Below, piece by piece: positions 1 through 6,000 of a stretch of DNA of 8,852 nt. Source of the stretch: a virus (Duplodnaviria; Heunggongvirae; Uroviricota; Caudoviricetes); the IMG/VR virus record IMGVR_UViG_2778261136_000008, positions 1 to 8,852 of that record, one strand, 5' to 3'. The stretch's first letter is position 1; each line of letters starts with the position of its first letter. Position numbers: made by a program.

Positions 1-3000
1 TTAAATAACCAACTTAACCCATTCCTGACCTCGGGTATCGTTATAGCGATCGGTGGTAGCCTGGACTTTATGTCCCAGTAATGTTTTTGTATCGACACCC
101 TGTGCGCGGTACAACCGTTCTGACAGGGAGCGTTGTTCATGAAATGTTGGCGGTGTTTTTCCTGCTGGTGGAATTATTCCAGCCAGATCTCGCGCTTTGG
201 CGAAGTAATCGCTCAGGTTGTCTTTACTCATCGGTTTTGGTTGTTTCTGGTGCCTACTATGGATTAGGTATGGACTCAACATTCTGTCCCTGCATCCATC
301 AATAACTTCTTTTAACGATACCCCAATTTCATCGCATCGTAGCGTAAGAGGTAAGGCCAGACGCATTCCGGTTTTTCCTTGGGTTATATGTAGATGTCCA
401 TTCCATACATCTGAAAAACGCATGTGGCAAATGTCATCACGGCGCTGACCAGTAACAATCGCAAGAAGCATTGCGTTACGGATAAAGTGTTTTTCTGGCG
501 TTGCATTATAAATTTTTTGCCAGTCTTCCAGGGTGAGTCTGGATCTGGTCACTTTAGGGATCGGTTTACGGGTAGCCTCCGGAGGATTCCATCCAGGAGG
601 AACTTCTCCCGCATGCTGTGCTTCTTTATAAATATCAACCCATAATCCGCGATTTACTCTTGCTGTGCTGACCATGTCTTTATCCATCCACTCGTCCAGT
701 ATTAATGCAAAGTCTCTTACCTCCAGTTCTTTCAATGGGTGGTTTCCCAGGCGGGAAACCAGGTATGCAGCCATTCGCACTTTTTCTTTGTGGGTTGTAG
801 CTGCAATGTCTCCATTTTTCAGTCGCGTGTCCTGTATTTTCAGATATCGATCAACCCATGCCTTTAATCTGATACCCCGACGTTTTGTTGCTGACGGACT
901 TTCATCAATTTTGCGCATGAAATATTCAGCTTCTGCTGCAGCTATTCGCTGATTGGCTGTGGAAGCGATTTTTTCTGCCTTACCTTTGTCTGTTCCGAGT
1001 CCGTGAAATTTTCCAGTCACAGGATTTTTATACTGGTAGTAAACTCTGCCAGTTCTGCGATCAAACTTTTCGTAAAGACCGGCTACGTCAGTGCTGTTTT
1101 TTCGTGGCCTCGGTGACATGAGTTAAAATCTCCTTCAGTGCATCATCATCGCCAGTATGAATTTCCGGCGCAATTCCCGTTTCACCAGGCCCAACAAATA
1201 CTGCTCGGCGATCTATCAGCCAACGCCCACGAATTTTTTGTGGTCTTGGAACGATGTATCCTAGTTTTCCGTATTTCACCAGGGTAGTGTTTGTTATTGG
1301 GAGACTGAACCGTTTTGGTTTCCACTCGTCGAGCGTTATCAGGTACTGTTCGCTCATGGCTATCACTCCGGAACGCGCCAGTTGCAGAATATCAACGACA
1401 ACTGGCGACGGTTGAACATTAAAAATCAGCCTGACTCGGGATCAGTTTTTGCCAGATAACTGAAACGTATTTTGCCTGGTAACGGGCGTCATCAAGTGCA
1501 TTATGGCGCTCACCTTCGAATGGAATAGCCGTTCTGGCATCGAAGTCTATGGCTTTCCCCAGCTCAACGATTGTGCGTACATCGCGATCGTTGTAGTAAC
1601 GCCACGGGCAGGGGATCCCCTGCCGTTCGTATGAACGGCGCAAAATCGTGTTGTCGAAGTTGGCTCCATTTTCCCAGACCTGAACAAAAAATTCACCGGA
1701 GTTTTCGTCGATAAATTCCCGCAATTGTAACAGTGCATCATCTAACGGGATTTCATCGGTCATAATGGCAGATTGCGCTTCGCGTGATTGCTTAAGCCAC
1801 CATTTAATGGTGTCCCGATCAATGACCCCGCCAGCAGTTTCCAGATCGATAGTCTTACTAAATTCCGGTCCCATATCTCCGGTTTGCGGATCGAAAAATA
1901 TTGCACCTATTGAGATGATCGGGGCATCAGGATTTTTTCCCATGGTTTCAAGGTCGATCATTAGATGGTCACACGTCCTGCTGGTGGATGTGATTTCTTG
2001 ATGACCGTTCACCTTAATTGAGTGATCTGCCGTCTCGCCAGTTTCATTATCGCTATCGTGATGCTGATTGCCGCCAGTGTTCTCCTTGTGTGGATGTTCA
2101 GCGCCTTCCATTTCCTCCGGATCATCTTCCTGAACTTCAACCTGATACTCTTCATCGAATGTTTCCTGGTATGTTGCGTCGCCCATCACCGCACCACAAT
2201 CAGGGCAGTTGCCGCCGCCGGTCTGACCGCAGGCGGTGCAGACTTTTTCCACTTCCTGTTGCGCCACTGGTTCAGGCTGTTTCGTTTCTGGCTCGTTTTG
2301 TAACGCATTTGGGCTGTTTTGTTCCGCTTTTTGGTAGTTCCGTTCCGATTCATGCTGGTTCTGGTTCACAGAATCGCGGGTCTGGATCCCCTTAACCCAT
2401 TTCGGATCATTCGGGTCACTAATCCCTTCAACAAATTCACCACGTGATGCAGCAAGCAACTTATCGGCGTCAGGCTGGCTGATATTGGCTGCCTGCATAA
2501 TTTTGTTTACTTCTTCAGCGGTAACTTTTATCGGCTCTGGTTGTTCTGAATCTTCAGCGGTATCTACATTTTGCGGTAAGCCCGTGTATGTGCCATTTTT
2601 TCGGGCAAAATATTCTTCTTTTGTGATTTCAGTGGCGCCAGCAGCCAGTGCCTTATCCAGACCAGAAAGTTTGTTTGCGCGACCGTATTTTTCTCCGTCC
2701 TTATCTGCGAAGAGGAAATAGAACGGCCCCTCACGCTCTACAGATGGTTCGACTTCCACTTTGCATTCGGTTTTTTCGTTGTCCGGAATTGCCGTTTCCA
2801 CTGCATCAGTTTCTGGTACTGGCGACGAGAGAGTATCAGTTGCGCTCTGATTTCTTCCTTCATCTTCAAACACGCCCTTTGTAGTCAGGTATTCAGTAAT
2901 GTATTTGTTCAGTGCCACAGGGTCTTTGTGAATGTCGATCGGACGTTCACGGACAAGGCCAAAAATAGTCTGGCGGTCGTAGCGAAGGGCATCAGGCTGT

Positions 3001-6000
3001 TTGCGCATTGATGCCGAGATACGCTTCCAGTCTTCGCGGTCGTTGTCGATAACTTCATTTTTTGCCCAGCGATGGATGCTGCCGTCAATGTTTCCGGCAT
3101 CCACATCACCAGGCCAGAGAGCGTAGGCCAGTTCGTCATCCAGTGTTTTCCATGTCTGCTTGTATTCGCGATGAATGGCAGCAATGACCGGGCTGATTTT
3201 TCCTGTTGAATTTTCAGTGTGTTGTTGATTGGTTCTGGCGCGGGCGAGATCAACAACAGACGTGTATTTTCCGGTTTCCTTGCGTTCACCTTCGCGACGT
3301 TTTTTCCAGATGCGCATCTCTGCCTGAATTTCGGGCCATTTGGCACCAGGCTTACATTTATGCTTAACCCACCCGATGGCATGCAGCTTAAGTTCCGGAT
3401 ACATGGCGTTAACTTCTGGCATTTTCATCAACGCTTCAACGATATGTCCGTCGAATGTTGCCATGTCTTCCTGCAACAATTCCTGTGCGCTAATAACCAT
3501 ATCAACGGTGATGTTTTCACATGTGTCGAACTTAACCATGACAGCGTTCTGTACTTCAGGGGCCAGCTTGTCAAAAGTGACGTTCATCGGATCTGATTCA
3601 GTCTCAACCGGGACAAAGGAAGCAGACTCCTCATCCCAGCGGTTTTCCTGCATATATTCAGCATCCCAGGAATCGAGGGCAGGGCGGGGTATGCCGGGTT
3701 TATCCTCACAGACAATAAATTTATAAGCGCAGTCCTGAGCTGCAGGGAATTGCTCCAGAAATTGCCAATGAAATTTTGCGCGTGCGCGACGCTCATCACC
3801 GGCTTCAATGGCAGTGGCCACCGCAACAGCGCTATCTTCTTTTATGGCCTGTTCATCAGGAATAGCAGCGCAAATAAAGACCTTACTCATTTTGTTTTAA
3901 CCTCATTACAGATTTCAGGGTGAACGAATCCCTGCCATTGCTGGCATTTTTAATCCGTTGGTATGGTGTTAATATGGCTGGCTGGTTATCCAGCCGGTAT
4001 TTCGTTATTCAGGTTCAGCGATACTTTTTTTAACGGGAGGCATTCACCGGGGATTTTTTGTTCGTCCCTTACCTGAATGCAGGATGACTTACTGTCATAA
4101 ATTCCGGTAATCACATTTTGTGGCTCACCCGTTATAAGAAAAACGGTCATCACCAGTGCAAATGCTGAAGTCACTGCTGTTCTCCGATAATACCAAGTTC
4201 AAGAAGGGCAATTCTGGAAAGTATGGAATTATCATTGAGAAGATAAGGTTCATATTTTCTCATCTTAATGGCATCTTCCGTAAACTCCCGGTTACTGAGC
4301 AGAACGCCAATATCAAAACAACCTTCAGACGTATTAACGTTTGGTAATAACGTTTCCATTATCGCGTCCTCAACAATGAATTTTGTGATGCGGTGCCTGG
4401 TGCCTCCAGGTGACGTTAACCAGTTAACAATTAACGCCGGAATACAGAAGGATGCCCGTTACGCCCCGTAAAAGACCACTTTACGGTTTTAACTGTTCCG
4501 CGTGCGCATAGCCGCATTCACCGCATCACAAAATTCACTTTAAAAAGGGTGGCAGAGCAGTCACGGAGTAGAACTGATGCCACCAAATACTACACATGGG
4601 TATTGTGGCGGGGCTGTCACTTAAGCGTATGGTCAACCTGACGACCCGGTGCATTTTCTGGAGCAATGGAGGAAGCCCCAGCCATACTTACCGCCGCGCC
4701 ATTTCGCGGATTGCCACAACCGGAAGCGCATGATCGAATTACATTTAACGACGACCTGTACAGAGAGACTAACTTCGCCGTGCGCTTTCGTGTTATGCCC
4801 TGACTTTTCAGGGAAATATCCTTTCAGCAAACTGTCAGTGCCGGATTCTTATCCGTGTCCGGCGCACGACCACACGTGACAGCGTGTTGGTCTCCATCAT
4901 TAACCCGGAACCTCTATGGAGGATAATATGCAAGTTGATATTATTAGCCCTGTAATGATCCATATGCTTGCGCACATCAGGCTCTTCTGGCACTAATCAA
5001 CGCCGGAAAAATTGAAAATTCCGCGATGTGCTTTGAAGAGTTGAAACAACTTGTGCGCTTGTATGAATATATTAAAAAACAATCACAAGATACGGCGTAA
5101 TATTTAAAATACTTTCTGTTATATGGGGCTGCTATAATGCTGGCCCATATTTCTAACCCCTCTATAAGAAAAACATATTATTATGGCAATTTCTTCGGTA
5201 GCTCTTCAGAAAGCTGAGTTGTTTTAATTATGGTTTTTAAATAATCATCGCTTTCACATTTGAGTGATTCTATGGCAATCCAGATGTGGGCTTCGGTGCC
5301 TGCATTTGGTTCCAGTTGCTGTAGACGTTTTGCATCTTCCAGTAGTAAGGCGATAACGTGTTTCAGCTTCTCATCATTCGCTTGATTCTTGTTTTCAGGC
5401 GAATTTTGTCCGCCGAATGGCCACTTTTCTTCGTACAGCCCGATAAAGGTTCGACGCACGTTACCGGATATATTGTCGATGGTTTCTTTTTCTACGGTAC
5501 TCAGGTCAAGAGTCGCCAGTTGAGAACGAACTATATTCGCTGCCATTTCCTGGAATGGTACTGGTAAATCTTTAAATTCCATCGTCAACCTCATCAGTCA
5601 GTGTTTCTGGCTAACCAGCGACGCGCGCCAGCTTCAGTTTTAAACGTTTTGCTTCTGGTATACGTCATCGCGGTAAACGTGCCGTCCAGGTTGGAGAATA
5701 CTCCGCATACCAGAGATTCGTTGTTGCCAAGATTGAGCGTATCCATGTTGACCTCATTTACCCTTAACGCCGGGTCGCGGAACTAAAAACCTGCTGCGCT
5801 GTTATACAAAGTGTTCCCGCCGTCATGTTCATACGCCTCGGGCTGGCTACTTAACCCCTGACCACTGCCGGGTAACTCGAAGTATTGCCCTGCGTTCTGT
5901 TGAATGGGGTGGGTTGGTGAAACAAGGATGCACTTTTAAAGTTATTATGTCAACACTTATAAAGTTAGGTTGTGGGCAACAAAAACCGCCTCGAGATGAG

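Follow-up and report, generated by a model that had tools for sequence, protein, structure and literature searches.

A YdfE-type exonuclease gene in a dicBF-type operon

The window, meaning the whole 8,852-nt stretch of viral DNA analyzed here, carries on its minus strand a gene for an 823-amino-acid YdfE-type exonuclease (1419–3890). The open reading frame predicted in the initial annotation is real: it starts with an ATG, has a GAGG motif 10 nt upstream, and is matched end to end by phrog_2082 ("exonuclease"). The next gene downstream is, as had been stated, the excisionase gene xis (1088–1357, minus strand; phrog_629 excisionase, E = 5e-26; Pfam Exc). With the ATG at 1357 that is annotated in a 99.9%-identical locus, the gap between the two genes is 61 nt (60 bp in the earlier count). 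xis thereby occupies the position held by recT in RecE loci, and is followed by a lambda-type integrase gene (1–1119, minus strand; Pfam Arm-DNA-bind_1 and Phage_integrase). The small upstream neighbors were also correctly named, with Pfam identifying a DUF1482/YdfD-family gene (3986–4174, minus strand; DUF1482, E = 2.8e-15) and dicB (4171–4359, minus strand; DicB, E = 3.7e-38) in the same operon. The DicF small RNA (4547–4598, minus strand; Rfam RF00039, 62 bits against a gathering score of 48) marks this as a dicBF-type early-left operon. Immediately before the exonuclease gene, neither a sigma-70-like promoter nor a terminator on the minus strand was predicted, which is weak evidence for its place in the operon.

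Alignment shows the K-12 Qin pseudogene ydfE to be a broken counterpart of this intact gene; the two products are 96% identical over aa 1–256. The description "RecE-annotated" holds in part. A RecE or exonuclease VIII label is found mainly in phage records, while RefSeq now uses "exonuclease" or "3′-5′ exonuclease", and the NCBIfam RecE equivalog model scores the protein at 288 bits against a cut-off of 1269.

A DexA-like nuclease domain at the C-terminus

The last ∼180 amino acids form a complete DEDDh 3′-5′ exonuclease domain of the DexA/Rv2179c-like kind (aa 642–813; 1452–1967, minus strand), covered by Pfam PF16473, "Rv2179c-like 3′-5′ exoribonuclease" (E = 3.5e-66, 222.7 bits against a cut-off of 27), a profile match far beyond chance. 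The three motifs on which the DEDDh assignment had been based, DLE (646–648), FDNTIL (745–750) and HNALDDARY (796–804), all lie inside this match, and the assignment stands with all five catalytic residues kept. Residues D646, E648, D746, H796 and D801 do not vary when the domain is aligned with six phage homologues, T4 DexA among them, and in 11 members of the fused class D746, H796 and D801 are likewise unchanged. The top Foldseek matches of the domain are RNase T, DexA, Orn and REXO2.

The family name raises the question of an RNA substrate, in which case the protein would be an exoribonuclease like Rv2179c that trims RNA 3′ ends, possibly those of transcripts from its own operon or of small RNAs such as DicF. 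PF16473 is named for an RNA 3′-5′ exonuclease, RNase T, Orn and REXO2 are among the fold neighbors, and DicF is encoded in the same operon. RNase T also cuts DNA, however, and the closest, and sole, solved sequence relative found is a DNA exonuclease, T4 DexA (PDB 8KEL; phmmer, E = 2.4e-6), whereas Rv2179c was not retrieved from the PDB at E ≤ 0.01 by sequence or by profile. The operons of many family members carry kilR and lack DicF, and elsewhere the scaffold is fused to DNA recombination modules. We consider an exoribonuclease improbable.

Stand-alone homologues of the domain (38–59% identical) occur in phage recombination or replication modules. In Salmonella phage g341c, one that is 55% identical is flanked by erf-ssb and abc2, and in Vibrio phage H188 another has a Cas4-type exonuclease and a RecA-like NTPase as neighbors. 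This gene context ties the DEDDh module to modules for recombination and DNA metabolism.

A prophage-borne DexA homologue could also act in anti-phage defense of the "HREX" kind, selectively degrading the 5hmC DNA of T-even invaders to protect the lysogen. EcD, a DexA homologue of E. coli that stands alone, is reported to digest T4 DNA while leaving unmodified DNA intact, and to confer protection on cells that express it from a plasmid (PMC12153337), and the gene described here is likewise prophage-borne, very common, and encodes a domain of the same DexA-like family. EcD is nevertheless a different protein (primers show that it starts MIDTET and ends TIPETYD), and the residues with which DexA is said to recognize 5hmC are not preserved here, W152 being aligned with Y766 and the D169 loop being absent. 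The gene also lies inside a repressor-controlled early-left operon, with no promoter of its own predicted, and not in the position of a moron expressed in the lysogen; no PADLOC model matches; and the defense claim is built on one study with plasmid expression (PMC12153337). A defense role of this kind is thus quite unlikely.

One N-terminal scaffold with interchangeable cargo

The protein begins with a head domain (aa 1–240; 3171–3890, minus strand) that is modeled by AlphaFold2 with pLDDT >90 over aa 1–205 and that corresponds to the YdfE_N and YdfE_C families (PF27430/PF27432), known from precomputed Pfam matches on near-identical homologues. Pfam found no match to the RecE head PF06630 in the 823-aa protein, and by these profiles the YdfE-type head is an alternative to it; an hhalign comparison of the two heads (55% probability over 76 columns) is only suggestive. 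The head is followed by a middle helical domain (aa 245–345; 2856–3158, minus strand; pLDDT >90); no other part of the scaffold is shared as widely. With phmmer it was detected in 40 members of the family, among them the RecE proteins of HK225 and Gifsy-2, with which the shared region spans aa 236–345, and it carries the conserved motif DREDWKRWS..LR...IL.YDR.TIF. A small beta/alpha domain (aa 388–435; 2586–2729, minus strand; pLDDT about 90–96), common to many family members, is predicted to contain strands at 390–394, 401–405 and 419–422 and helices at 408–416 and 424–431. The N-terminal region had been described as lacking any recognized motif, a statement now superseded by the two YdfE families; the three confidently predicted domains have no detectable structural relatives.

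Alignment to K-12 RecE reveals close likeness over aa 474–625 only (2016–2471, minus strand), a segment 68% identical to RecE residues 454–591 (BLASTP, E = 4e-61) that stops at the mosaic junction immediately before the nuclease domain. At the DNA level, nucleotides 1425–1867 of the gene are 78.8% identical to recE 1365–1765. Outside this segment the protein is still related to other RecE proteins, and sequence comparison identifies its N-terminal body as a true relative of theirs.

The paired CxxC motif noted within the segment was recovered by regular-expression search as CTACGQTGGGNCPDC (C551, C554, C562 and C565; 2196–2240, minus strand), with a spacing of CxxC-x7-CxxC and not x9. This Cys4 knuckle, a putative zinc-binding site modeled at low confidence by AlphaFold2, is also present in K-12 RecE and occurs in 6 of 47 long family representatives; by this count it is an optional insert and no hallmark of the family. 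The acidic linker that follows (aa 566–637; 1980–2195, minus strand) is as acidic as first described, with 14 D/E against 0–1 K/R per 40 residues between 561 and 620, and is predicted to be disordered (pLDDT <50 for residues 565–637).

Together, these proteins make up a small family of mosaics, built on a common N-terminal scaffold to which interchangeable C-terminal cargo is attached. Among the 47 long representatives, both head types combine with both nuclease types; phage vB_EcoS-813R8, for example, joins the RecE head PF06630 to the same DEDDh domain. When the neighborhoods of homologues were examined for a partner, the next gene was found to track the cargo type. RecT comes next at all 8 loci with PD-(D/E)XK cargo, and at all 8 intact loci with DEDDh cargo xis/int follows directly, without an annealase. 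A third, probably Rad52-like cargo, recognized by its sequence motifs, precedes a gene for a Gam-like Gp157 protein.

The locus studied here conforms to this pattern. Pfam scans of all sizeable ORFs in the window identified no annealase or PD-(D/E)XK domain, and when all six frames of the window were searched by phmmer, none of the queries (five RecT proteins, Erf, the Rad52-like domain, three RecE nuclease domains and Gp157) had a match at E ≤ 1. The reported absence of a recT/bet-like gene nearby also holds for the entire early region around a 99.9%-identical copy in a Stx2 prophage, and no PD-(D/E)XK RecE nuclease domain was found elsewhere in the 823-aa protein by Pfam, BLASTP against RecE or phmmer. 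The initial annotation was therefore borne out on the three points where it might have failed (a non-DEDDh C-terminus, a PD-(D/E)XK domain elsewhere, a missed annealase): its observation of a RecE-labelled protein with a DEDDh C-terminus and no annealase nearby is confirmed, and its interpretation is supported with the refinements given above.

DNA encoding the DEDDh domain is present in 4069 of 5426 complete E. coli genomes (about three quarters), at 8098 places and mostly at an identity of at least 95%; the Rac RecE nuclease domain is present in 1736 of the same genomes. Individual copies do decay, as in K-12, where IS2E interrupts ydfE, and in Shigella flexneri, where six ORF fragments remain, and many carrier prophages are cryptic. 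The gene might accordingly be a relic without function, left behind when illegitimate recombination replaced the nuclease of a RecE gene and persisting only with defective prophages. This is highly improbable given that full-length copies occur in at least 3533 of the 5426 genomes and also in phages that form plaques or can be induced (for example Tritos, mEp460, Evi and Stx2a phages), and that the catalytic residues are conserved. The DEDDh cargo moreover occurs with either head type and across several genera, and therefore the fusion has spread and been retained.

Putative role and comparison with known systems

Our preferred explanation, to which we assign a probability of about 0.6, is a mosaic single-chain nuclease in which a RecE-type scaffold carries a swapped-in DEDDh module and acts by itself on DNA ends. 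The 5′-3′ PD-(D/E)XK C-terminal module of RecE has been replaced on the common scaffold by a DexA/Rv2179c-type nuclease, which may strip nucleotides from free 3′ ends, most probably of DNA, by two-metal-ion catalysis, and which is probably dimeric, as are DexA, RNase T and Orn. The scaffold may bring or hold the nuclease at the same target as that of RecE, either DNA ends or a host factor. The protein is not a RecET-type recombinase; it would work as a one-component enzyme without a RecT-type partner, because an enzyme that digests 3′-5′ does not produce the 3′ single-stranded tail that an annealase would use. The gene is the last before xis/int, in the slot that other lambdoid phages use for recombination genes, and its position in a repressor-controlled early-left operon means that the protein is expected to be made after induction or infection and to act on DNA ends during phage development. 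Judged from sequence and gene order, a one-component 3′-5′ DNA-end exonuclease is thus the most likely identity.

Another possibility is a counter-defense or host-takeover nuclease, which after induction would not process phage DNA but destroy host, competitor or defense-system nucleic acids that expose a free 3′ end, such as fragments of host DNA, the 3′ tails required to load RecA, or DNA of the retron type. T4 DexA has a share in degrading the DNA of its host (PMC12153337; annotation). The gene is transcribed together with the host-directed early dicB, DicF and a ydfD-type lysis gene, the stand-alone homologue in g341c adjoins the anti-RecBCD gene abc2, and the long acidic tether could, speculatively, be a nucleic-acid mimic. 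Temperate lambdoid phages, however, are not known to degrade host DNA, and in sister proteins the same scaffold bears recombination enzymes, which points to phage DNA-end metabolism. We regard a host-takeover role as unlikely.

Among known systems, the one-component nuclease proposed here is close to RecE (exonuclease VIII; Rac, Gifsy-1/2, HK225, SPN3UB) in architecture, with the same slot late in the early-left operon beside xis/int and the same plan of a large N-terminal body, acidic tether and C-terminal nuclease. K-12 RecE shares the 68%-identical segment, Cys4 knuckle included, and the RecE proteins of Gifsy-2 and HK225 have a homologous middle domain. The two differ in their nuclease (PD-(D/E)XK, 5′-3′, in RecE; DEDDh, of the 3′-5′ class, here), in the downstream recT of RecE loci, for which there is no counterpart here, and in the head, which is PF06630 in RecE and of YdfE type here, where the NCBIfam RecE model falls far below its cut-off.

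T4 DexA (exonuclease A; PDB 8KEL/8KEN) has the same DEDDh fold and all five catalytic residues, but DexA and the stand-alone PF16473 homologues are proteins of about 170–230 aa, whereas here the domain is the C-terminal cargo of a much longer chain, and DexA-specific loops, including the D169 loop, are absent. DexA acts on DNA and has a part in intron homing (PMC12153337). EcD, reported to be 5hmC-specific and protective (PMC12153337), is also an E. coli-borne member of the DexA-like family, but it is a separate stand-alone protein whose proposed specificity residues are not conserved here, where the setting is a phage early operon. Rv2179c of Mycobacterium tuberculosis, the namesake of PF16473, shares the Pfam family and the DEDDh chemistry but is a stand-alone bacterial exoribonuclease, unlike the fused protein. 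Lastly, K-12 ydfE, from which Pfam YdfE_N and YdfE_C take their names, lies in the same dicB-ydfD-ydfE-(xis)-int context in Qin, but its truncation by IS2E removes everything from about aa 257 on, the nuclease included, and the best-studied strain is therefore uninformative on function.

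A DEDDh nuclease domain on a YdfE-type protein

The one long ORF of the window (1419-3890, minus strand) opens with an ATG, carries a GAGG 10 nt upstream of it, and encodes a YdfE-type exonuclease of 823 aa. In a Pfam scan, aa 642-813 match PF16473 ("Rv2179c-like 3′-5′ exoribonuclease domain") at E 3.5e-66 (222.7 bits; gathering score 27), and the match covers positions 2-177 of the 177 in the profile. A second, weaker match to RNase_T falls on the same stretch. The initial annotation had proposed a DEDDh domain from three motifs, and each of them lies inside the PF16473 match: DLE at 646-648, FDNTIL at 745-750 and HNALDDARY at 796-804. 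When the domain is aligned with T4 exonuclease A (DexA) and five stand-alone phage homologues, D646, E648, D746, H796 and D801 are invariant columns, with D7, E9, D119, H186 and D191 as their DexA counterparts. The three Exo motifs (D646 and E648 in DLE, D746 in FDNTIL, H796 and D801 in HNALDD) form a complete DEDDh set. The fold is DnaQ/RNase T-like, as the top Foldseek matches in the PDB are RNase T, DexA, Orn and REXO2 (probability 1.00, E 3e-6 to 5e-4) for a full-length query model in which the pLDDT of the DEDDh domain is only moderate.

Family membership predicts that this C-terminal domain is a 3′-5′ exonuclease. It would digest free 3′ ends by two-metal catalysis, would probably act on DNA, and may dimerise like its relatives. 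A role directed at RNA, as in the name of the Pfam family, appears quite improbable. The closest solved sequence relative is T4 DexA (E 2.4e-6), a DNA exonuclease implicated in host DNA breakdown and intron homing (PMC12153337), and stand-alone homologues 38-59% identical to the domain occupy phage DNA-metabolism modules. In Salmonella phage g341c the homologue sits between erf-ssb and abc2, in Vibrio phage H188 it adjoins a Cas4-type exonuclease and a RecA-like NTPase, in other phages homologues are close to helicase and primase genes, and in phage PhiR47_1 it is the last early-left gene. A part in host takeover or counter-defence, with host DNA breakdown by DexA as a parallel, is an unlikely alternative to end processing for the protein studied here.

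N-terminal to the nuclease domain, a CxxC-x9-CxxC motif had been proposed. The four cysteines are present (C551/C554/C562/C565), with a spacing of CxxC-x7-CxxC, and they are followed by the acidic linker that had been described, at 14 D/E vs 0-1 K/R per 40 residues. In AlphaFold2 models, built from alignments of 37 and 66 sequences, the N-terminal part contains three domains of high confidence (pLDDT >90 at aa 1-205, 245-345 and 388-432), and disorder is predicted at aa 346-384, 500-548 and 565-637. The scaffold model, that of the N-terminal body that carries the nuclease, has no structural relative in the PDB or BFVD.

Operon context and the search for an annealase

The gene occupies a position in the early-left operon, and its surroundings are largely as first described. 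The next gene is xis, after a gap of 61 nt rather than 60, and the upstream neighbours are, by Pfam, a DUF1482/YdfD-family gene and dicB. Beyond dicB, in an ORF-poor stretch that separates it from the upstream genes, lies the DicF small RNA (4547-4598, minus strand; Rfam RF00039, 62 bits), whose presence assigns the early-left operon to the dicBF (Qin) type. No promoter of its own is predicted for the exonuclease gene, which points weakly to expression that would follow induction. Elsewhere in the window, the cI/DicA-like repressor gene (6527-6934) and the DUF1391 gene flank a ParE toxin gene (6018-6305, minus strand) and a PaaA2-like antitoxin gene (6309-6560, minus strand). The antitoxin probably starts at an internal codon, since its longest ORF shares 34 nt with the 3′ end of the repressor gene. 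Two ORFs have no Pfam match, a 137-aa early-left ORF (5181-5594, minus strand; phrog_1363) and a 335-aa ORF in the replication-gene position (7764-8771, plus strand).

The initial annotation also claimed that no recT/bet-like gene lies near the exonuclease. None is present in the window or anywhere in the early region of a copy that is 99.9% identical. Besides the exonuclease, the Pfam families in the sizeable ORFs of the window are integrase, excisionase, DicB, DUF1482, DUF1391, the ParE/PaaA2 pair, HTH repressors and YdaT, and none of these ORFs matches an annealase (SSAP) family. A six-frame phmmer search of the window with five RecT proteins, Erf, a Rad52-like domain, three RecE nuclease domains and Gp157 returned nothing at E≤1. 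Unlike the RecE proteins of K-12, HK225 and Gifsy-2, the 823-aa protein has no match to PF12684 (DUF3799), the PD-(D/E)XK nuclease domain found at RecE 606-866. The lack of RecT fits the predicted chemistry, because a 3′-5′ nuclease makes no 3′ single-stranded tail onto which an annealase could load.

A shared body with exchangeable C-terminal modules

Over its first 256 aa the protein shares 96% identity with the product of the Qin pseudogene ydfE of K-12, where the gene is cut by IS2E, and the window thus carries the intact form of ydfE. The K-12 MG1655 copy (L007:6079-6999, in our numbering of compared loci) encodes only these N-terminal 256 aa. As the nuclease part is missing from the standard laboratory strain, the gene may for this reason have stayed unstudied. 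Homologues with 93-99% identity across aa 1-472 have precomputed matches to PF27430 (YdfE_N) and PF27432 (YdfE_C). Of 5426 complete E. coli genomes, 4799 have matches to the whole gene, 3533 of them at ≥80% coverage, and the gene is annotated there as "exonuclease" or "3′-5′ exonuclease". DNA of the DEDDh domain occurs in 4069 of these 5426 genomes (about 75%) at 8098 places, more than twice as many genomes as the 1736 (1827 places) with DNA of the Rac-type RecE nuclease domain. Carriers include Stx2 prophages and the isolated phages Tritos, Evi, mEp460_ev081 and HannyBb. In Shigella flexneri SFBU0723, a DEDDh-type gene (L026:6600-8548) is broken into six ORF fragments, a case of decay in a cryptic prophage. 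For the protein of the window, a decaying relic is very hard to credit.

Similarity to K-12 RecE is confined to one significant BLASTP segment, aa 474-625 against RecE 454-591, with 68% identity and nothing past aa 625. At the DNA level the segment in common with recE is 78.8% identical. Both the Cys4 knuckle and the acidic stretch fall within it, and its end lies just ahead of the crystallised nuclease domain of RecE. The NCBIfam RecE equivalog NF007259 scores 288.1 bits, over partial stretches only, against a cut-off of 1269. The RecE head, PF06630 (Exonuc_VIII), has no match in the 823-aa protein, and an hhalign comparison of the YdfE head with the RecE head families (55% probability, E 1.2e-4, 76 columns) is suggestive only.

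Searching 1.84 billion representative proteins with aa 1-640 gave only 252 relatives at E≤0.001, and 47 representatives of at least 500 aa were classified by phmmer. The family plan consists of a YdfE or RecE (PF06630) head, a middle domain that is widely shared (aa 236-345), a further small one at aa 381-440, a variable acidic tether and one of several C-terminal modules, or cargoes. Both heads occur with both nuclease classes: representatives P0132, P0195 and P0233 join a YdfE head to PD-(D/E)XK, and P0128, P0141 and P0245 a RecE head to DEDDh. Phage vB_EcoS-813R8 likewise has a PF06630 head with the same DEDDh domain, and its DNA is 98.3% identical to the window's gene from nt 1361 onward. 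The Cys4 motif was considered as a hallmark of the family and rejected; it is present in 6 of the 47 representatives, and the knuckle is for that reason best seen as an optional insert.

The initial annotation had suggested looking in the neighbourhoods of homologues for a consistent partner gene, and among the loci examined the next gene tracks the type of cargo. The set combines phage and E. coli records that carry annotation, look-ups of contigs, and a one-genome-per-species scan by middle-domain alignment, which supplied 17 loci. With PD-(D/E)XK cargo (K-12 Rac, HK225, Gifsy-2, L012, L013, L024, L031 and L032), RecT is next in 8/8. Intact DEDDh cargo (the window, L002, L006, L014, L015, L022, L023 and L025) is followed by xis and/or int or by no recognisable recombination gene, and none of these 8 loci has an adjacent annealase; the fragmented S. 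flexneri copy is a ninth, outside the intact set. A third cargo of ~275 aa (phrog_7838; BUCT708, L027-L030, L033 and L036-L038) precedes a Sipho_Gp157 / phrog_253 "Mu Gam-like end protection" gene. A fourth (phrog_26058, represented by P0126; L009-L011) precedes xis/int.

The third cargo contains the motif KKSLTDAxKKALSxLGFSAD, whose KKSLTDAxKKALSxLGF part we take to resemble Rad52/Sak, and 7 of 11 members have sub-threshold Rad52_Rad22 matches (best E 0.0037); no other signal recurs for this cargo. These weak similarities suggest that it is probably a Rad52/Sak-like annealase. The phrog_7838 label "exonuclease" may then be wrong, since the protein has the appearance of an annealase fused to the scaffold and paired with a Gam-like protein. 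A diverged PD-(D/E)XK or DEDDh domain was rejected at an hhalign probability of 0.1% for both, and searching the PDB with a profile gave no match. Proteins with this cargo lie at L005:3974-6672 and at about 6200-9200 in each of L027-L030, L033 and L036-L038. At L009:5001-7109, P0126 bears phrog_26058, without a Pfam match, on YdfE head and middle domains; kilR precedes the gene and xis/int directly follow.

Proposed role and comparison with RecE, DexA and EcD

We put at roughly 60% the probability that the protein is a RecE-type scaffold joined to a DEDDh nuclease and working as a one-component DNA-end exonuclease. The architectural part of this proposal is near certain, and the functional part stands at roughly even odds. 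The scaffold would bring its nuclease to the site or partner to which the body of RecE delivers its own. That a single body bears three or more unrelated C-terminal modules, and that the partner gene changes along with them, suggests an autonomous, transferable role for that body. More tentatively, the YdfE/RecE body could serve lambdoid phages of Enterobacterales as a general platform that targets DNA ends, or else a host factor, and that carries interchangeable effectors with matching partners: PD-(D/E)XK with RecT, a Rad52-like module with the Gam-like Gp157, DEDDh without a partner, and at least one further cargo.

If such a platform exists, the DEDDh version, which is more common in E. 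coli than any other, would represent a previously unrecognised, annealase-independent form of phage DNA-end processing. Its task might be to shorten 3′ tails and so influence the course of repair or replication, or to weaken host systems that sense ends. The N-terminal 600 residues of RecE, whose function has long gone unexplained, would become easier to approach as well. Full-length RecE and its nuclease domain alone behave differently in recombineering. The N-terminal region has for decades been described as "of unknown function" (review PMC11611040).

The existence of the protein is not new, as database annotation already captures its domain composition and the protein is very common. In the literature on ydfE, on Rv2179c with phage, and on DEDDh phage-encoded defence, we found no functional study of the 823-aa protein, and we found no published description of a scaffold with exchangeable cargo and matched partner genes. 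The label "exodeoxyribonuclease VIII", still attached to many phage records, would mislead as to both polarity and pathway.

A defence role like the one reported against T4 for EcD (HREX), an E. coli homologue of DexA, is an unlikely reading. EcD is a separate protein, and of the DexA residues proposed to read 5hmC, W152 is replaced by Y766 (nt 1593-1595) and the D169 loop is absent, although the alignment is uncertain in loops. The D169-bearing loop is also deleted in short phage homologues. The exonuclease gene lies in a repressed early operon, and PADLOC has no model match for it or its small neighbours. At the position of W152, all five aligned stand-alone phage homologues have W; most scaffold-fused members have Y there and a few have C, W or R, a change that may be class-specific at a dimer or substrate site.

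EcD stands alone, with its own N- and C-terminus according to its cloning primers, from which we rejected the idea that it is a fragment of the 823-aa protein; here the domain sits within a fusion. RecE acts 5′-3′ on dsDNA, the opposite of the polarity predicted for the DEDDh class, and the protein lies outside RecE in nuclease class, equivalog score, RecT partner and PF06630 head. It shares the tether ahead of the nuclease with K-12 RecE, and its middle domain recurs in 40 members of the family, the RecE proteins of HK225 and Gifsy-2 among them. The gene product resembles a DexA-type nuclease mounted on a RecE-type body and is a member of the PF16473 and YdfE families.
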